IMG/VR virus record: IMGVR_UViG_3300021066_000003
Strand: one strand, 5' to 3'
Origin: a virus
DNA length: 49,320 nt
Shown: one piece after another, positions 2,533 through 47,425 of the stretch
Position numbering within the stretch: the stretch's first letter is position 1
Layout: each line of letters begins with the position of its first letter
The notes under the pieces: generated by a model
Database searches by the model: none
What the model saw: the letters and a program-made list of their open reading frames with translations, nothing else
Told to the model about the DNA's origin: nothing
Made by a program: the position numbers and the translations under genes

Positions 2533-4094
2533 TATTGCCGGACCTCCTCCACCAGCGGCTCACCGTCCTTGTCGTGGCCGACCACCTTCCAAGACTTGCC
2601 GCCACGCTGAATGACGGTCCCAAGCGCCGCCTTGGCAGAACCGCGGCGCTCCAGGTCGCGAACATGCAGACCTTCGCCGAGCACCCTACTCTCGTCCCCG
2701 CCGTAGGCCTTGATCTTGTTGCGGTACGTCTTCTCCAGCTTGCCTTGCGCACGGTTGAGCTCGGTGAAGTTGCGCCGGATCTCGGCGTACATATCCTGCG
2801 CCACGCGGTCGGGAATCGTCTGACCTTTGTCGAGGACTCCGGCGACGCTGACCCCGATGCGCTCGAAGATGTTGCCGAGCTTGTGCAGGTCCTTGATGTC
2901 GGACACAGCGATCCGGTCGTTCGGGTCGCGCATCTTCGCGTAGGCGAACATGAGCGCCGCATCGCCGGCCGACGTCTTGTCCTTATCCCGGTTCGCCATG
3001 TAGTCGGTCGTGGATTCGAAGAGCGGTCGACGCTCCGAGAACTTCTTCGAGTCCTGCCTGTAGTCGTCCGAGACCTTGAGCTCCACGTTGACGATCTGCG
3101 GGTCGATGCCGCCGGGCTTCCCTGGTTCCTTGACCGGGCCGAGCTCGACATACCGCGTGTCGGTGCCGAGCCGCGTGCCGGTGATCGTCTTGTCTGGATC
3201 CCACTGGTAGACCTTCCCGGCGATCGTCTGAGTTTTCGGCTCATCGGGCGGCCTGCCTGCTCGCTTCGCGCGATCGACCAGCAATTCCTGCTCCTTCGGC
3301 CCGTGCAGCACGCCGAGGCCTTCCCAGAACACCCTGTCGTTGCGCTTGATCGAGTCGACCTGCGCCTCGGAGAGCTTCACCTGGTCCGGGAGGTACTGCT
3401 GGATTTCCAGCACCTCGGAGGCAGTGATGACGTTGTCCGCCTTGATGGCCTTCAGCTTGTCGGCCGGCACGAACTGGTCCAGTCCGAGCAGCGCGGTCTG
3501 CACTTTCTTCGTTGCCAATCGAAGGTCGGACTTGTCCTTGGCGTCGACCAGCACTTTCATGCCTTCCGCGGTGCCTGCGAAGCGCAGGAACTCTTTCGAG
3601 TTCGACTTCATCATCACTTGGATCGGTTCTGGCAGGTATTGGGCGTATTCCTTGAACTGCGTGAGCATGTCCGGCTTCTTCGCGAGAGCCGTGAACGTCT
3701 GCTTCATGCCGGGCTGAATGGCCTCCAGCTTGTTGCCGTAGGCCTCGTCGAAGGCTGCGGCGTCCTCCGCGCTCATGCCCTTGCGCATCTCGATACCGTG
3801 CTCCAGGGCGCTCACAGTTTCCTTGAGCTCCTGCAGTTGCGTGAGCTTCGCCTTGCGCTTGGTCTCGATCTCGGCAACGAGCGGCGAGGGTTGCCCGGTC
3901 ACGCCAGCGCCGAATTCGGCAAGGCGCGTGAAGAACTCTTGGGAACCGGACATCTTCGAATAGGCATCCTTGACCGGGTCGGGCTGTGCTGGCGCCATGC
4001 CGATACCTGTCTGGGATGCGGGCGCGGTCAGAAGCGAACCCGAAGATGCACTCTCGCCAGGGAATAGTTGCTTCTCGTCGTATAGGACTGTCAT
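2532..4094 (-). CDS. Internal virion / ejection protein (520 aa)
   Basis: Track ORF 2532..4100. ATG at 4094 overlaps the upstream TAA (TAATG). It is a long, charged, coiled-coil-rich protein in a block of three large genes after the tail fibre, the position of podovirus ejection proteins. Confidence 0.6.
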   Translation of the reverse strand: MTVLYDEKQLFPGESASSGSLLTAPASQTGIGMAPAQPDPVKDAYSKMSGSQEFFTRLAEFGAGVTGQPSPLVAEIETKRKAKLTQLQELKETVSALEHGIEMRKGMSAEDAAAFDEAYGNKLEAIQPGMKQTFTALAKKPDMLTQFKEYAQYLPEPIQVMMKSNSKEFLRFAGTAEGMKVLVDAKDKSDLRLATKKVQTALLGLDQFVPADKLKAIKADNVITASEVLEIQQYLPDQVKLSEAQVDSIKRNDRVFWEGLGVLHGPKEQELLVDRAKRAGRPPDEPKTQTIAGKVYQWDPDKTITGTRLGTDTRYVELGPVKEPGKPGGIDPQIVNVELKVSDDYRQDSKKFSERRPLFESTTDYMANRDKDKTSAGDAALMFAYAKMRDPNDRIAVSDIKDLHKLGNIFERIGVSVAGVLDKGQTIPDRVAQDMYAEIRRNFTELNRAQGKLEKTYRNKIKAYGGDESRVLGEGLHVRDLERRGSAKAALGTVIQRGGKSWKVVGHDKDGEPLVEEVRQ

Positions 4095-5017
4095 TACCAC
4101 CCCCGCCCGGCCATGCCGATCCCGCGCGCCAAACTGCCTATTCCTTGGAGGTACGCAGCCGGGTCGAATGACGTGCCTGTTCTGGTCGTGTTCGCGGATC
4201 GCACGCCGGACAACGCACTCAAGGTGCCGACCCCAGCGCCACTACCGACGCTCGCCAGCCCAAGCCCGGTGCTGCTCGTTTGCCCACTGAGCAGCAAGCG
4301 GTTGTTGAACGCACGCTGCCGAAGTTCGGCCTGGAACTGCTTCGCCGCATCCGCCACGTTCTGCGTACTCAGGTTGATGCCGCTCTGCAACTGCTGCACC
4401 GCAAGCGGGTAGTTGAGCTTCGCCGAAGCCTCGGCCGCACGTAGGTTCTTGACGAGGGAACCCTTCTGGATCTCTCCCTCACGCGCAAGCAATGCTGCCT
4501 CGCCCTTGATCGGGGAGTCGGACAGTCGCAGGCCGCGGGCATTCGCGAGTTCATCGGCAATGAGGCCAAGCCCCCTCTGAGTGCTCGCGTCGATGTCGGA
4601 CGATCCTGCCGATATGGCCGCATCCGTCCCGGCCTTGATCCTGGCTTCCTGCTCTGGGGTAGCCGCACCGCCAGAGCGAATGAGGTCCAGCTGCTTCTGC
4701 AGCAGTTCTTCTTGGATCGGCCCGAGACGCGACGCGCGATCAAACTCGGACTTCGCAAAGGCCGCCTGCTGCTCCGGCGTGATCGCGGCATTAAGCGCTG
4801 CCGTCTCGGCACCCTGCCTGCGCAGGTCGGCGATAGTGATGTCTAGGAGTTCTTTCTGGAACGGGGCAAGCGTGTCCAGTTGCGCGAGTTGCCTGCGCGC
4901 GAGCTCCGTATTGAGCTTGATTAGCTCCTGTTCTTCGGCGGTAGGTGCTGGCGTAGACGTGACGACGTTCGTGGTGCTTCCTCCACCCCCGAACAGAGAG
5001 TCAACTAGCCCGCTCAT
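4094..5017 (-). CDS. Internal virion protein, Ala/Gln/Gly-rich (307 aa)
   Basis: Track ORF with an ATGA overlap to the upstream gene. Gly-rich N- and C-termini (LFGGGGST..., ...GIGMAGRGW) flank a helical core. Function is inferred from position only. Confidence 0.5.
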   Translation of the reverse strand: MSGLVDSLFGGGGSTTNVVTSTPAPTAEEQELIKLNTELARRQLAQLDTLAPFQKELLDITIADLRRQGAETAALNAAITPEQQAAFAKSEFDRASRLGPIQEELLQKQLDLIRSGGAATPEQEARIKAGTDAAISAGSSDIDASTQRGLGLIADELANARGLRLSDSPIKGEAALLAREGEIQKGSLVKNLRAAEASAKLNYPLAVQQLQSGINLSTQNVADAAKQFQAELRQRAFNNRLLLSGQTSSTGLGLASVGSGAGVGTLSALSGVRSANTTRTGTSFDPAAYLQGIGSLARGIGMAGRGW

Positions 5018-30062: not shown

Positions 30063-30534
30063 CGTAGTCGCCCAGCAACTCCCTGAAGAGCGCCGCCGCA
30101 TCCGGGTTTGTATCGAGGTGCGCCCTGCTCTCCACGCCGCACAGGTCGCGTATCAACTGCGCCGCTGCTGCGTCATCCCGGCATGGATCCCCGTAGGTCA
30201 CTTCGCACCATGCCCGGAAGTTCGCGTCGTGGCACAGGGCGCCGGCCTGCTGCGATAGCTTCATCGGTCGTTTCTGTTCTTCAGCTTGCATAGGGGTCTC
30301 GTCGTCGTCGATTTCGATCAGCATGAGGTGATAGCGCTGGCCCCACTTGTGCGTCCGACCTGCGCGATTCTTACCGCGAAAAATCTCAAGGTGCGTTTCG
30401 TCCGGTAAGCGGAACTTCACCCACGCACCGCTGTTAGGGTTGTCCTGCCAGTCGGCTAGGCTCACCTCGCATATCTCCGTGAGGTACGGTCGAAGCTGCG
30501 CTATTAGCTCCAGCACTTCTTCAGGCGGAAGCAC
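30031..30534 (-). CDS. Hypothetical protein (167 aa)
   Basis: Track ORF with protein-like sequence (MLPPEEVLELIAQLRPYLTEICEVSLADWQDNPNSGAWVKF...). Confidence 0.6.
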   Translation of the reverse strand: MLPPEEVLELIAQLRPYLTEICEVSLADWQDNPNSGAWVKFRLPDETHLEIFRGKNRAGRTHKWGQRYHLMLIEIDDDETPMQAEEQKRPMKLSQQAGALCHDANFRAWCEVTYGDPCRDDAAAAQLIRDLCGVESRAHLDTNPDAAALFRELLGDYDASKRDVPQS

Positions 30535-31459
30535 GTAGGCTCCTCACCGCTGCCGGCCCCTGGTGCAGTAGCTCCGGGTTTGGCGCCGAGTACACGCGGT
30601 CGAGAATTGCGGTCGTCTTGTGGCCGGTCACGAGCCGCACCTCGGCAGGGCTGTAGCCGGCTTCCAGCAGCCGCGTTGCCCCTTCCCTGCGCAGGTCGTG
30701 GAAGCGCAGGTTTTCGATGTTGAGCTTGTGCTTTGCCTGCGTGAACCTGGCGCTCGCCGTCTTCGCGTTGTAGGGGAAGACGAACTCGGAGGTCATCTCC
30801 TGCGCCATCATCAGCGCCCACGCATCGCCCAGAGCCGGGAAGAAGATGTCGTTGCCCTTCTTCATCTTCGGGTCCTTGACGTCGCGGACCCAATACATCT
30901 TCTTGTCGTAGTCCAGGTCTTCCCACTTGATGCGCGTGATCTCAGACTGCCTGCGGCACGACGCGATGGCGAACTTGACCATCACCACCATGTCGCAGTC
31001 CGTCCTGGGATGCTCGTTCTGCTCGGCGAAGTAGGCGAGCAGCCTGTCGATCTCTACCTCAGTGGGGCGCCGGGTTCTCGGGCGCGACTTGCCGATGAGG
31101 TTGAGCTTCTCCAGCCACAGCTTCGCCTCCTCCAACTCCGCTTCCCAGCGGTCGCTGCCCTCGGACTTCCACAGACGCGTGTTCTCCAAGGCGCAGTGCA
31201 GGAACGTGAAGTCCTGCATGAACGTCTGCGGCTTGATGCCGTCGACTTCCTTGCGATGCTTGGCGTATTCGACGATGTCGTTCGCCTGCAGGTTCGGGAG
31301 CCAGATTTGCCCGAACTTCGACTCGGCCATTGAGCGCAGGGTGTAGAACTGGCTGTGGCCCATGATGCGGCTCATGTTCACTTCCCGGATGTGCCGGTAG
31401 ATGATGTCCTTGAGCGTGTTGCTTTCGCTGCGTTGCTGCAGTACCGATACGTTCCTCAT
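30521..31459 (-). CDS. Tyrosine recombinase no. 2, embedded in the replication operon (312 aa)
   Basis: Catalytic signature: SCRRQSEITRIKWEDLD (Arg), RFHDLRREGATRLLEAG (H-x-x-R), VTGHKTTAILDRVY (His...Tyr). It also has an N-terminal SAM-like domain. Confidence 0.75.
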   Translation of the reverse strand: MRNVSVLQQRSESNTLKDIIYRHIREVNMSRIMGHSQFYTLRSMAESKFGQIWLPNLQANDIVEYAKHRKEVDGIKPQTFMQDFTFLHCALENTRLWKSEGSDRWEAELEEAKLWLEKLNLIGKSRPRTRRPTEVEIDRLLAYFAEQNEHPRTDCDMVVMVKFAIASCRRQSEITRIKWEDLDYDKKMYWVRDVKDPKMKKGNDIFFPALGDAWALMMAQEMTSEFVFPYNAKTASARFTQAKHKLNIENLRFHDLRREGATRLLEAGYSPAEVRLVTGHKTTAILDRVYSAPNPELLHQGPAAVRSLRASA

Positions 31460-42267: not shown

Positions 42268-42468
42268 GTGATCGAGCGCATGACCTACACGCAGTTAAAG
42301 GAGTACAGGACAAGGCTTTCCGGTCGCTTGGAATGGGCGAAGGACAACAAGCTTTGGGCGCACGCTGAAGATGCCTTGAGCGAACTGGACCGCGTGAACA
42401 TGGAAATCGGACGCCGCCCCGAATATAGCGGCACGAGTCATAACACTACGACGAAAGGGAGCAAATGA
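42268..42468 (+). CDS. Hypothetical protein (66 aa; alternative ATG at 42280)
   Basis: Track ORF. ...MTYTQLKEYRTRLSGRLEWAKDNKLWAHAEDALSELDRVNMEIG... Confidence 0.5.
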   Translation: MIERMTYTQLKEYRTRLSGRLEWAKDNKLWAHAEDALSELDRVNMEIGRRPEYSGTSHNTTTKGSK

Positions 42469-42839
42469 AGGTCTATCTGTGCGGCCCGATCAACGGGCGA
42501 TCCGACGACGACTGCAAGGGCTGGCGTGAGTACGCCAAGGAAAGGCTCCCCGACACCCTTGACCCGATGGACCGGGACTACCGTGGCCGCGAGCTGGAGC
42601 CGGGAATCGCGAAGGAGATTGTCGAGAACGACAAGCTAGACATCCAACAGTCGGACGCCTTGCTCGTCTTCTACGACAAGCCGAGCGTAGGAACCAGCAT
42701 GGAGGTCTACATGGCGCACGGCATGGGGAAGCGGATCGTTCTCGTGGACAAGTCCGGCAAGCCTCTTTCCCCGTGGCTGATGTACCACTCCCACGAAGTA
42801 CACAAGTCGCTGGACGAGGCCATTGCTAGTCTTGCTTGA
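42465..42839 (+). CDS. Nucleoside 2-deoxyribosyltransferase / DNPH1-like protein (124 aa)
   Basis: MKVYLCGPINGRSDDDCKGWREYAKE... and ...SDALLVFYDKPSVGTSMEVYMAHGMGKRIVLV (Gly-Thr-x-x-Glu then G-x-G-K) match the NDT-family layout. ATGA overlap upstream. Confidence 0.55.
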   Translation: MKVYLCGPINGRSDDDCKGWREYAKERLPDTLDPMDRDYRGRELEPGIAKEIVENDKLDIQQSDALLVFYDKPSVGTSMEVYMAHGMGKRIVLVDKSGKPLSPWLMYHSHEVHKSLDEAIASLA

Positions 42840-43428
42840 TACCAGCCACGACCTGAACACCTGCGCCGCAGAGCTTGGCTGCGAGGTGGGGACGTTGCTA
42901 ACCCCGCTGACTCGATACCGCCTGCGTGAGCCTGAGAGGCCGTGGGCTATCGACAACGGGGCGTTTGCTCGCTTCGAGGAGAAGGCGTTTCTGGCCCTCC
43001 TGGAGCGTGAGTCTCATCACAAGGAAAACTGCATCTTCGTCACCGTCCCTGACATCGTGGGGTCAGCCCGCAGGACGCTGGAGGTCTTCGAGCGGTGGAA
43101 GGGACGACTTCAGGGTTGGAAGCTCGCCCTCGCCATTCAGGACGGTCAGGGGGATCTGCCGATTCCGTGGGAAGAGATCGACGCGGTATTCATCGGCGGG
43201 TCCACGGAGTTCAAGCTATCCAAGGATGCAGCTGCCGTGGTCAAGGCCGCCAAGGTTTTAGGGAAGTGGGCGCACGTCGGAAGGGTCAACGATCCGTCCC
43301 GTTTTGAATACTTCGAGGAGATGGGGGCTGACTCCATCGACGGAACAGGTCTTTCCCGCTACAGCCACATGAGGAAAGCCATCAGCAAGCGAGACACCCA
43401 GGAGAAGCTCTTTGCTAGTCAGGCATAG
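42823..43428 (+). CDS. dpdA: Minimal TGT-fold, DpdA-like 7-deazaguanine DNA transglycosylase candidate (201 aa)
   Basis: AIDNGAF (compare tRNA-guanine transglycosylase DSGGFQ), VFIGGSTEFK, WAHVGRVN and MGADSIDGTG (compare TGT GVDMFD). Its neighbours are QueF-like and YhhQ-like genes. TTG start. Confidence 0.5.
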   Translation: MLVLLDTSHDLNTCAAELGCEVGTLLTPLTRYRLREPERPWAIDNGAFARFEEKAFLALLERESHHKENCIFVTVPDIVGSARRTLEVFERWKGRLQGWKLALAIQDGQGDLPIPWEEIDAVFIGGSTEFKLSKDAAAVVKAAKVLGKWAHVGRVNDPSRFEYFEEMGADSIDGTGLSRYSHMRKAISKRDTQEKLFASQA

Positions 43429-43657
43429 CCTCACCATCACCGCATCCTGCCCCGTGGACGGGAAGCCAGACCATTACGAGGCAGTTGTGGAATGCGTCCG
43501 CGTAGTCAAGGTGGAAGACATCCTCGCCGCCGTGCAGCAGTTGAGGGACCGCAAGGTATTTCAGGAAGAACTAACGCAGGAGCTTGCCCGCACGCTCGGC
43601 GCGAAGGTCACAACGACGGGCTACCACTCGGGAGTAAAAACCGTATGCGAATGCTGA
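43412..43657 (+). CDS. QueF-like T-fold protein lacking the NADPH motif (81 aa)
   Basis: SCPVDGKPDHYEAVV matches the QueF catalytic-Cys motif (CP-x-TGQPD). LRDRKVFQEE parallels QueF FRNHGDFHED. No E(S/L)K(S/A)hK(L/Y)(Y/F/W) signature is present. TTG start. Confidence 0.5.
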   Translation: MLVRHSLTITASCPVDGKPDHYEAVVECVRVVKVEDILAAVQQLRDRKVFQEELTQELARTLGAKVTTTGYHSGVKTVCEC

Positions 43658-44142
43658 TCGGCCTCTACATCGCCGCGATGGTGGCGGCAAACCTGCTCGT
43701 ATGGTGGCTCGGGCCTTGGGCCTCTCCGTTTATCGCCTTCTGCCTGATCGGTCTGGATCTGACCCTGCGGGACGTGATGCACGACAAGCTCACACGCTGG
43801 CAGATGCTCGCCGTGGTGCTGGCCGGCGGGGCGATTACCTGGGGCCTGAATCCGGCAGCTGCGAAGATCGCCATTGCCTCCGCTACCGCCTTTACGGCCT
43901 CCGCACTGGCCGACTGGCTGGCCTACTCGTACCTCCGTAACCGTCCGTGGCTCGTCAGGGCAAACGGGTCGAACGTCGTCGGGGCAGCGGTGGACAGCCT
44001 GATCTTTCCGACCCTCGCTTTCGGAGCCCTGCTGCCGCACATCGTCGCCATGCAGTTTGCTGCCAAGGTCGGTGGTGGGGCGATTTGGTCGATGGTGCTT
44101 CGGGGCTTCGTTCCTAGCACGGCGAATAAGGAGAACAAATGA
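43645..44142 (+). CDS. yhhQ: YhhQ/VUT-family queuosine-precursor transporter-like membrane protein (165 aa)
   Basis: It has multiple TM segments, and ...ANGSNVVGAAVDSLIFPTLAFG... is characteristic of YhhQ-type proteins. A GGGAG SD sits upstream. Confidence 0.6.
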   Translation: MRMLIGLYIAAMVAANLLVWWLGPWASPFIAFCLIGLDLTLRDVMHDKLTRWQMLAVVLAGGAITWGLNPAAAKIAIASATAFTASALADWLAYSYLRNRPWLVRANGSNVVGAAVDSLIFPTLAFGALLPHIVAMQFAAKVGGGAIWSMVLRGFVPSTANKENK

Positions 44143-46251: not shown

Positions 46252-46437
46252 ATGAGCGAGTTTCTCACCGAGGAGGATCTTCGCCGGCTGACGGGATACG
46301 TCCGCCGTGCGAAGCAGGAGGAGGAACTGCGCCGACAGAGCATTCCCTACCGCAAGAATGCCCGCGGTGAGCTCGTCGTGAGTCGTAACCTGGTCGAAAA
46401 GCCACTACCGGAATTTGAGCTCGGACCTGTACGATAG
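46252..46437 (+). CDS. DUF4224-type small protein, excisionase/recombination-directionality candidate (61 aa)
   Basis: MSEFLTEEDLRRLTGYVRRAKQEEELRRQSIPYRKNARGELVVSR. It lies immediately upstream of the integrase. Confidence 0.55.
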   Translation: MSEFLTEEDLRRLTGYVRRAKQEEELRRQSIPYRKNARGELVVSRNLVEKPLPEFELGPVR

Positions 46438-46441
46438 CGGC

Positions 46442-47425
46442 ATGGGGAGGCCGAAGGGCCGATTCCCGGACTTACCGCCCCACATGACGGGCCGGGTTTC
46501 CGGGCAGAAGGTCTACTACTACCACCAGGCGGCGGGGAAGAAGACGCCGCTGGGGAGCGACAAAGCCGAGGCATTGCGCCGCTGGGCCGTGCTCGAAGCC
46601 GGGTCTATCGGTTCCGGCTTCATCCCCGTATCGGACGCCTACGAGAAGTACGTCAACGAGCAGCCGTTCTCCCTTAGCTCGAAGCGCCACTACGAGATCG
46701 CCCTGCGCAACCTGCGGCAAGCCTTCGGGAAGGGGCGCCTGGAGCAGATCGAGCCCAAGCACGTGAAGCAGTACATCCGGCGCCGCAGCAAGAAAGGGGC
46801 GGCGATCTTCGAGAAGCGGATCCTTTCGGCGATGTGGAATTGGGCGCGTGAGGAAGGCCTGACCACAGCCCTGAATCCGTGCGCCGGCATCAAGTTCAGT
46901 CAGGCCGAGAAGAAGGTCATAGGGAAACTCGGTAAGCGCGATCGGTACGTCACAGACGCCGAGTTCGAGGAAGTGCTGGCAAGGGCAGACCCAATCCTCC
47001 AAGACGCTATGGAGCTCGCCTACCTCACCGGCCAGCGTCCCGGGGATCTGCTCAAGATGACACGCCAGGACATGCGGGAAGGCACGTTGCTGATCGTCCA
47101 GGAGAAGACCGGCGCCAAGGTCCCCATCCTTATCCAGCGCCGCCTGAAGACCGTTCTGGAACGCGCCCTAGCCCGTCCGAGGCGCATCAAGAGCATCTAT
47201 GTCATCGCCACCGAGAACGGCCAGCGGCTCACCTATGCCCAGCTAAACGCAAGATTCCGGGCAGCCCGCGGCGATGCAGACTGGCAGTTCCGCGACATCC
47301 GGGCGAAGACGGCGTCGGATCTCCCCGATATCCGCCGAGCACAGCAGCTGCTCGGGCACACGAAGGAAACCACCACCACGATCTACCGCCGCTCTAAGGG
47401 CACGCCAATCGCCCCGCACGAGTAG
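46442..47425 (+). CDS. int: Tyrosine integrase (327 aa)
   Basis: AYLTGQRPGDLLKM (Arg), FRDIRAKTASD (x-x-x-R) and LLGHTKETTTTIYRR (His...Tyr). It is followed by an AT-rich non-coding region. Confidence 0.8.
   Translation: MGRPKGRFPDLPPHMTGRVSGQKVYYYHQAAGKKTPLGSDKAEALRRWAVLEAGSIGSGFIPVSDAYEKYVNEQPFSLSSKRHYEIALRNLRQAFGKGRLEQIEPKHVKQYIRRRSKKGAAIFEKRILSAMWNWAREEGLTTALNPCAGIKFSQAEKKVIGKLGKRDRYVTDAEFEEVLARADPILQDAMELAYLTGQRPGDLLKMTRQDMREGTLLIVQEKTGAKVPILIQRRLKTVLERALARPRRIKSIYVIATENGQRLTYAQLNARFRAARGDADWQFRDIRAKTASDLPDIRRAQQLLGHTKETTTTIYRRSKGTPIAPHE

Follow-up and report, generated by a model that had tools for sequence, protein, structure and literature searches.

A probable 7-deazaguanine cassette with a barrel-only DpdA-like enzyme and a QueF-L-like protein in a temperate phage

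The IMG/VR virus record IMGVR_UViG_3300021066_000003, a stretch of 49,320 nucleotides with a G+C content of about 62% (referred to below as the window), encodes a portal protein, a major head protein, tail-fibre proteins, an amidase and a DnaB helicase, and is the genome, or a near-complete contig, of a temperate phage. Analyzed here is a cassette of four overlapping genes located on the + strand at positions 42465-44142. The predicted products, called ORF1 to ORF4 (ORF, open reading frame), resemble an N-glycosidase of the nucleoside 2-deoxyribosyltransferase (NDT)/DNPH1 superfamily, a DpdA-type guanine transglycosylase reduced to its core (hereafter mini-DpdA), a T-fold protein of the QueF-L type, and a transporter of the YhhQ type (Table 1). 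The four overlapping, rightward genes reported in a preliminary description of the sequence were all recovered at the positions of Table 1, and every motif string quoted in that description is present in the ORF translations.

Consecutive genes of the cassette overlap by 17, 17 and about 13 nucleotides, and ribosome-binding sites of the GGAG/GAGG type are found upstream of each start: GGGAG precedes the ATG of ORF1, and GAGG the TTG codon at which ORF2 begins. The longest frame available to ORF4 spans 43492-44142 (216 amino acids). The true start is likely to be the internal ATG at 43645, which falls inside the end of ORF3 and opens a protein of about 165 residues (MRMLIGLY...), because the match of ORF4 to PHROG 4899 begins at residue 49 of the long frame, and GGAG is located 10 nucleotides 5' of this codon.

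Table 1. Genes of the cassette, their location in the window and the evidence on which each assignment is based
Gene	Coordinates	Strand	Evidence
NDT/DNPH1-superfamily N-glycosidase-like gene (ORF1, 124 amino acids), first in the cassette	42465..42839	+	Pfam PF05014, PDB profile matches
Core-only DpdA-like guanine transglycosylase, mini-DpdA (ORF2, 201 amino acids)	42823..43428	+	Structural model, Foldseek, hhalign, neighbouring genes
Minimal QueF-L-like T-fold protein (ORF3, 81 amino acids)	43412..43657	+	Structural model, Foldseek, profile, motifs
YhhQ/QPTR-type queuosine-precursor transporter-like membrane protein (ORF4, about 165 amino acids)	43645..44142	+	Pfam PF02592, PHROG 4899

ORF2 matches no Pfam or NCBIfam family and, by phmmer and profile search, no PDB sequence; the Pfam model of tRNA-guanine transglycosylases (TGT, PF01702) detected neither the window protein nor 63 members of its family at E values up to 1. 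These results are not counted against homology, because the same searches fail for canonical DpdA1: the DpdA1-type proteins of phages phiG7, Erebus and ZHS likewise have no Pfam match. The AlphaFold2 model of ORF2 (predicted local distance difference test, pLDDT, 88.7) is a beta/alpha (TIM) barrel of eight units. When the model was compared to the PDB with Foldseek, ranks 1-16 were occupied by TGT or arcTGT chains (best E 1.8e-5; query-normalised template modelling, TM, scores 0.46-0.57), and a search of BFVD returned phage entries named 'queuine tRNA-ribosyltransferase' along with protein M4SLA5 of Cellulophaga phage phiST.

The relationship to DpdA1 emerges at the profile level. Aligned by hhalign, the mini-DpdA family (63 sequences) matches a narrow DpdA1 set with E 0.0037, a single DpdA1-type protein of 247 residues with E 6.7e-4, and a diverse DpdA1 set with E 7.8e-6 (probability 83.9%, 136 columns), the match gaining strength with the diversity of the DpdA1 set. 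A search of viral contigs with DpdA1 yielded 7 close relatives, and the diverse set was therefore assembled from phage records. Motifs paired by the alignment are AIDNGAF with LDSGAFS, PDVVGD with LDGIGD, FIGG with TLGG, HVGR with HGFG, and DSxDGSG with SCDSSSW. Residues D44, P76-D77, Q106, G108, G126, G153 and D173 are invariant in the mini-DpdA family, and both D44 (in AIDNGAF) and D173 (in DSIDGTG) fall on Asp residues invariant in DpdA1. The mini-DpdA motifs are moreover collinear with six motifs of E. coli TGT (DSGGFQ, FDEC, IIQGS, VGGLAVGE, LMGVGKP, IDMFDC). ORF2 terminates about 28 residues past D173 and has no Cys cluster, and thus no Zn-binding CxCxxC...H subdomain; in E. coli TGT the Zn motif, CDCYTC, lies downstream of the barrel. 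The TGT fold that had been proposed for the 201-residue protein is upheld by the 16 best PDB matches of the model and by the similarity to DpdA1 profiles.

DpdA4, which has been equated with DUF6610 (PMC10516641), was rejected as a classification, since none of the 63 family sequences matched PF20314 at E values up to 1. The mini-DpdA family is large: clustering at 90% identity gives 2,631 clusters, and at 50% identity there are 2,936 representatives, which for the most part measure about 200 amino acids. The small size of the protein, regarded in the preliminary description as an oddity of this phage, is hence the norm across some 2,900 clusters. Homologues detectable by BLAST are found in 27 of 50,697 deposited phage genomes, and the GenBank records of actinophages (SEA-PHAGES) label homologues about 43% identical as 'DpdA-like tRNA-guanine transglycosylase'.

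Neighbouring genes were monitored in 87 phage-type mini-DpdA loci (80 IMG/VR contigs, several phage and metagenome records, and the window; loci are denoted below by L numbers) with hidden Markov models (HMMs) seeded from the window genes and from the annotated queuosine genes of Escherichia phage phiG7, the source of the DpdA1 reference, which belongs to the genus Seuratvirus (Queuovirinae). In 61 of these loci mini-DpdA is immediately adjacent to one or more queuosine-pathway genes, usually with an overlap, the neighbours being QueC (24), QueD/PTPS (22), YhhQ (11), the QueF-L-like gene (9), and QueE (3). Pfam confirmed the assignment of QueC in L027 (PF06508) and of PTPS in L004 and L005 (PF01242). 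Association with a single queuosine-pathway gene is usual: in the IMG/VR loci L006-L085, around position 5000, QueC only was found 23 times, PTPS/QueD only 17 times, and YhhQ only 8 times.

Individual loci add to this picture. In mycobacteriophage GreaseLightnin (L002, 2367-2924) the product of gp54, annotated as hypothetical, matches Vut_1 (PF02592, E 2.3e-11), and the gene lies directly 5' of gp55, annotated as 'DpdA-like'. The Seuratviruses phiG7 (L086; 9191-9837, 4442-4921) and SHIN8 carry a mini-DpdA homologue beside canonical DpdA1; in phiG7 this homologue is annotated as two ORFs, and the 'hypothetical' phiG7_11 matches the YhhQ-like model. In L004 (7784-10606) a related prophage, with mini-DpdA and PTPS genes followed by an integrase gene, is inserted directly beside the host queA and tgt genes, which may be a coincidence or a meaningful integration site. 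Dozens of loci in Burkholderiaceae (L112-L174; Paraburkholderia, Caballeronia, Burkholderia) encode divergent mini-DpdA proteins (30-38% identity), flanked not by queuosine genes but by genes for an SMC/AAA_23-type ATPase of about 770 residues and a PLD-family nuclease, about 3 kb upstream of position 4001; these loci may be defence islands or Dpd-like systems.

The AlphaFold2 model of ORF3 (pLDDT 95.2) is a minimal T-fold of beta-beta-alpha-alpha-beta-beta topology. The top 13 Foldseek matches in the PDB are all chains of QueF-L, the archaeosine synthase of Pyrobaculum calidifontis (5jyx, 5k0p; E 3.6e-6 to 1.8e-5, query-normalised TM 0.73-0.81, 26-28% identity), with GTP cyclohydrolase I and QueF ranking below them, and the family profile aligns to 5jyx over nearly the full length (E 7e-4). 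Residues C13 and D20, invariant in 44 sequences, align with C21 and D28 of QueF-L and share their spacing; in the archaeal enzyme Cys21 is the nucleophile forming the thioimide, and Asp28 the general acid/base (PMC5485725). The CP-x5-D and QE motifs are kept in 43 of the 44 family members. E52 is invariant and corresponds to a Glu conserved in QueF-L; the residue before it is an invariant Gln, the sequence reading FQEE in ORF3 and LHEE in QueF-L. Gln-Glu is found at the equivalent site of GTP cyclohydrolase I, too.

ORF3 and QueF-L also have in common the lack of the NADPH-binding motif of QueF, E(S/L)K(S/A)hK(L/Y)(Y/F/W), which occurs in none of the 44 family members, even in a relaxed form. 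ORF3 scores 17.2 bits with the NCBIfam QueF model TIGR03139, far under the cut-off of 86.9, and this value and the missing motif led to rejection of the NADPH-dependent reductase QueF as an identity for the protein. Several homologues of 81 residues (P0126, P0127, P0129 and others) carry the JGI label 'NADPH-dependent 7-cyano-7-deazaguanine reductase QueF', which on sequence grounds is probably wrong. The earlier view of the 81-residue protein as QueF-like, and devoid of the NADPH signature, holds on both points, QueF-L (5jyx) being the nearest relative by Foldseek and by profile. ORF3 differs from QueF-L in length (81 versus 109 amino acids) and in being encoded by a phage, beside a putative DNA transglycosylase, whereas QueF-L is the partner of arcTGT on tRNA. 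No tblastn match to ORF3 was found in the 50,697 deposited phage genomes. In a survey of 2023 no phage QueF aligned with QueF-L, and all but a few phage QueF sequences kept the NADPH motif (PMC10516641).

Each of the 15 loci in which the 81-residue gene was found has a DpdA-type gene next to it. The transglycosylase is mini-DpdA in 14 loci, and a DpdA1-type protein in L200, and the two types therefore look interchangeable as partners of the QueF-L-like gene, which argues for their functional equivalence. In L200 (3501-4489) the QueF-L-like gene is followed by the gene for the 247-residue protein, which is related to phiG7 DpdA1 (phmmer E 1.7e-10) and has motifs (VLDNSAF, IPDKIDG) between those of DpdA1 and mini-DpdA.

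ORF4 is hydrophobic throughout, and its sequence suggests about six membrane spans. The match to Vut_1 (PF02592; E 1.3e-12, 48.8 bits, cut-off 27.2) agrees with the multispan YhhQ/VUT-type protein expected from the preliminary description, and that to PHROG 4899 (5.8e-39) covers residues 49-207 of the long frame. The NCBIfam equivalog TIGR00697 is matched under its cut-off (E 1.7e-7, 31.2 bits, cut-off 50.95). ORF4 is a predicted transporter of the YhhQ/QPTR family, with a queuosine precursor as its putative substrate; YhhQ/QPTR of E. coli imports preQ0 and preQ1 (PMC11130926).

Genes for de novo precursor synthesis were searched with HMMs for QueC, QueD/PTPS and QueE, and by phmmer for FolE, unfiltered, in all window ORFs of at least 40 amino acids in six frames, and nothing better than E about 1 was obtained. 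Similarly, a Pfam analysis of 20 ORFs of the early region revealed no QueC, QueD, QueE or FolE family. That folE, queD, queE and queC are missing from the 49 kb, as was noted from the outset, is confirmed, and the term salvage-only is correct for the window of this phage, since no ORF matches any of these families.

The NDT/DNPH1 layout initially seen in ORF1 is corroborated by Pfam PF05014 (Nuc_deoxyrib_tr), matched above the curated threshold (E 7.8e-11, 42.6 bits, cut-off 28.8). A profile made of ORF1 and five phage relatives matches YtoQ, Trypanosoma brucei NDT, Rcl/DNPH1, BlsM and MilB in the PDB. The catalytic Tyr, Asp and Glu residues of this fold family are represented by Y4, D56 and E80, which are invariant across the six homologues and aligned in the PDB matches. 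The motif P73-S74-x-G-T-x-x-E80 (PSVGTSME) aligns with PSLGVGYE of DNPH1 and PSPGTHVE of BlsM, a PS-x-G...E pattern that ORF1 shares with the monophosphate hydrolases DNPH1/Rcl and BlsM/MilB. At this motif position the Ser of DNPH1 binds the 5'-phosphate. T. brucei NDT reads PDCGTAFE, with Asp six residues before the catalytic Glu, where ORF1 has Ser74; the motif D-x-G-T-x-x-E of a nucleoside 2-deoxyribosyltransferase proper is thus absent. Having Ser74 as in DNPH1 and BlsM, not Asp as in NDT, ORF1 resembles the nucleoside-5'-monophosphate N-glycosidases more closely than it does a nucleoside transferase. Of the two roles proposed earlier for the gene, nucleoside-level base exchange or recycling, the first has to be modified, the motif pointing to a nucleotide N-glycosidase and away from a nucleoside transferase.

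ORF1, at 124 amino acids, is further set apart from DNPH1, BlsM and NDTs in that its relatives are repeatedly found inside phage 7-deazaguanine clusters. Besides the window, where the order is NDT, mini-DpdA, QueF-L-like, YhhQ, this holds for nine loci differing in gene order. Three are phages with DpdA1-type transglycosylases: Aminobacter phage Erebus (QueE, QueC, QueD, NDT, FolE, then DpdA), Rhizobium phage RHph_X3_2 (QueE, an ORF of unknown function, NDT, QueC, QueD, FolE, then DpdA), and Edwardsiella phage ZHS (QueC, FolE, DpdA, three ORFs, then NDT). The others are metagenome contigs, with the orders mini-DpdA, YhhQ, NDT in L203; YhhQ, NDT in L204; QueE, then QueD, NDT, FolE in L208; QueD, QueE, QueC, YhhQ, NDT in L215; and QueF-L-like, NDT, mini-DpdA in both L217 and L218. 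In L203, L204 and L215 the YhhQ and NDT-like genes are directly adjacent. Altogether, the NDT-like subfamily is found among 7-deazaguanine genes, or next to them, in ten independent loci that display at least five gene orders. The gene is hence not the one-off it had seemed, relatives recurring also in clusters that carry the de novo pathway. No description of NDT-like genes associated with phage 7-deazaguanine clusters was found in the literature.

The 9-mer TTGCTAGTC, made up of the TTG start followed by Leu and Val codons, occurs just twice in the 49-kb window, counting both strands, at 42823-42831 and 43412-43420, which are the exact starts of the mini-DpdA and QueF-L-like genes. The repeat could be a common context for translational coupling or initiation, or a relic of cassette shuffling. 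Two genes of the tyrosine recombinase type (Phage_integrase) reside in the window, at 30521-31459 on the - strand and at 46415-47425 on the + strand, the latter about 2.3 kb downstream of the cassette; an integrase gene is also found downstream of mini-DpdA in L001, L004, L005 and L087. A tRNA scan found no tRNA genes in the window, promoter and terminator scans gave nothing above chance, ten small flanking ORFs had no PHROG match, and the cassette region had no megablast match in the 50,697 deposited phage genomes. The host is probably an alphaproteobacterium, because the nearest mini-DpdA homologues in bacterial genomes (58-66% identity) are those of Rhizobiaceae, Devosia and Novosphingobium.

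Phage DpdA systems known so far include DpdA1 of Escherichia phages CAjan and 9g, and the DpdA-only Salmonella phage 7-11 and Pantoea phage MED16. As in these, a gene of the TGT superfamily is clustered in the window with queuosine genes, and mini-DpdA is homologous to DpdA1 at the profile level, with Asp-containing motifs in register. In CAjan, DpdA-dependent dPreQ0 modification has been shown experimentally (PMC6884629, PMC7544227); some known phages without the preQ0 pathway are believed to draw on the preQ0 of the host, and YhhQ is encoded by some (PMC6884629). Mini-DpdA differs from DpdA1 in size (about 200 versus about 300 amino acids), and is undetectable in BLAST comparisons with DpdA1-type phage genes. 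To M4SLA5 of phiST, which may be the prototype of DpdA3, it is similar at the fold level only. Neither the lists of phages in the literature nor the DpdA1-4 scheme was found to include the family (PMC6884629, PMC10516641), our own comparisons covering DpdA1, DpdA4 and M4SLA5. A second parallel is the salvage of queuine and queuosine, in which a transporter (YhhQ/QPTR or QrtT) is paired with an N-glycosidase that frees the base (QueK or Qng1; PMC11130926). ORF1 differs from these glycosidases in belonging to another protein family, and the destination of the base would be phage DNA, not tRNA.

All this makes it very probable that the cassette is a 7-deazaguanine module centred on an enzyme of the DpdA type. 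That the four genes together make up a scheme for scavenging a precursor and modifying DNA is held with less assurance, though we still consider it probable. In this scheme the free 7-deazaguanine base (preQ0, perhaps preQ1) would be drawn from the host pool and through YhhQ-like import. ORF1 would probably feed this pool through N-glycosidic cleavage of (deoxy)nucleoside 5'-monophosphates, in parallel with QueK and Qng1, which release queuine base from nucleosides or nucleotides (PMC11130926); alternatively, it may serve guanine or dGMP recycling. After replication mini-DpdA would exchange guanine in the phage DNA for the base by means of the Asp pair D44/D173. Cys13 of ORF3 would then attack the nitrile of DNA-bound preQ0, and the thioimide would most likely be resolved by ammonia, giving dG+. 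QueF-L acts in this way, in that a thioimide is formed at Cys21, free ammonia is the donor, and turnover is observed solely on preQ0 already in nucleic acid (PMC5485725). By analogy, dG+ is tentatively put forward as the end product, at somewhat less than an even chance. The target would be DNA rather than tRNA, and the pay-off evasion of host restriction. It is improbable that the boldest claims hold jointly, namely that the cassette is a minimised route independent of de novo synthesis, ORF1 a third non-homologous class of N-glycosidases in 7-deazapurine salvage, the barrel-only DpdA a fifth, very abundant subfamily, and ORF3 the first viral QueF-L acting on DNA, providing a third route to dG+ after Gat-QueC and ArcS.

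A number of observations weigh against this scheme. Other TIM barrels (GlpQ, transaldolase) appear among the Foldseek matches of ORF2 from E 1.2e-4, only about 10-fold weaker than TGT. No significant match was obtained when the mini-DpdA family was aligned by hhalign with E. coli TGT as a single sequence, so that the correspondence of the catalytic Asp residues to those of TGT rests on collinear motifs and fold. Mini-DpdA has neither the N- and C-terminal extensions of DpdA1 nor the Zn subdomain of TGT, a lack that bears on how it would bind DNA. In the ORF3 family, Gln takes the place of the His of the His-Glu pair of QueF and QueF-L, and H5 and H72 are additional invariants; given these differences, the chemistry may not be that of QueF-L. 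The same residues, and a length about 25% below that of QueF-L, would fit an ORF3 that is no amidinotransferase but a carrier or sequesterer of preQ0, or a hydratase resolving the thioimide with water, the DNA being modified with dPreQ0 or dADG. As a carrier, the ORF3 thioimide could shield preQ0 from host QueF and pass it on to DpdA. With free preQ0, QueF-L does form a thioimide that is stable and does not turn over (PMC5485725), the DpdA-only phage MED16 carries dADG (PMC8306585), and phage proteins nearer to QueF-L by HHpred proved to yield dPreQ1 (PMC6884629). We nevertheless regard this alternative as unlikely: the nearest relative of ORF3 in sequence and fold is an amidinotransferase, its catalytic Cys and Asp are invariant, and the constant position of the gene against that of DpdA fits action on the DpdA product. 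The place of ORF1 is weakened by the finding that, among 165 loci in which a mini-DpdA gene was detected, an NDT-like gene adjoins it in the window alone, the other 164 being without it; the gene is accordingly rejected as a constant part of the mini-DpdA cassette. Many relatives, moreover, reside in ordinary settings of replication or nucleotide metabolism, away from queuosine genes: 19 IMG/VR loci (most from one clade, 40-48% identity), L209, a metagenome contig of the same clade in which the gene is found among exonuclease and dCMP deaminase genes, Roseobacter phage CRP-7, Moorella phage MTATph1 and Natrialba phage PhiCh1. Work on archaeal viruses files NDT under pyrimidine metabolism (PMC8651126). 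ORF1 might accordingly be a general enzyme of nucleotide metabolism (dNMP N-glycosidase or deoxyribosyltransferase), a translationally coupled bystander of a module formed by ORF2-4. This is rather doubtful in view of the ten queuosine-linked loci in their different gene orders, which weaken the idea of a bystander, and of the relatives at least 50% identical to ORF1, five out of eight of which are linked to queuosine-pathway genes. To our knowledge, and as an estimate rather than a computed value, 7-deazaguanine clusters are carried by a small minority of phages, and for this reason the linkage is judged far above expectation. The link between the NDT-like gene and 7-deazaguanine genes is thus recurrent but facultative, and the gene is not a core member of the cassette, because it is absent beside mini-DpdA in the other 164 loci.

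Two further alternatives concern the target and the purpose of the modification. Mini-DpdA could act on tRNA or on the free-base pool, the cassette reprogramming queuosine or tRNA modification of the host during infection or lysogeny. The fold common to tRNA-guanine transglycosylases, the lack of the extra DpdA1 segments, and the one related prophage lying beside host queA-tgt speak for this possibility. It is nonetheless very unlikely, as the profile similarity is to the DNA-modifying DpdA1 and not to E. coli TGT, mini-DpdA carries no TGT Zn subdomain, PUA or other tRNA-binding domain, and DNA methyltransferase genes are found near mini-DpdA or QueF-L-like genes (Dam in L004 and L005, N6_N4_Mtase in L087 and L199); every phage DpdA subfamily tested so far acts on DNA (PMC10516641). 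The location of the cassette near an integrase gene, at the distal end of the early region, and the homologues of Paraburkholderia and Caballeronia beside an SMC-like ATPase and a PLD nuclease would also suit a self-marking or defence module expressed in lysogeny, similar to bacterial Dpd, one that would modify the DNA of the lysogen rather than counter restriction for the phage. We give this version hardly any credence, since the cassette has no nuclease or restriction component next to it in the window, its genes run in the direction of the early lytic-type operon and overlap into it, and close relatives are mostly viral contigs of the same layout.

The kind of system is known, and the cassette is a compact, precursor-scavenging version of it, in which two parts are undescribed in phages. 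What appears to be new is a barrel-only DpdA clade that makes up a separate subfamily of very high abundance, the presence in phages of a QueF-L-type protein lacking an NADPH site, and a recurrent NDT/DNPH1-like partner in 7-deazaguanine clusters. Being small, all four proteins would lend themselves to use as tools for heterologous DNA modification.

The modification of DNA with 7-deazaguanines is a major counter-defence of phages, for which DpdA has been put forward as the signature enzyme (PMC10516641). Surveys of modified genomes may undercount, because the DpdA clade of about 200 residues is invisible to Pfam, and the genomes in which BLAST detects it are to be set against its roughly 2,900 clusters at 50% identity; the cases missed may be many, above all among temperate phages that infect Proteobacteria, Actinobacteria and Cyanobacteria from soil and aquatic habitats. 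A genuine QueF-L-type protein of phages bears on whether nitrile chemistry can occur on DNA-bound preQ0. That an NDT/DNPH1-like partner recurs suggests a step of these pathways so far unrecognised, be it liberation of the base or recycling of guanine, which would be relevant to the salvage of queuosine precursors.

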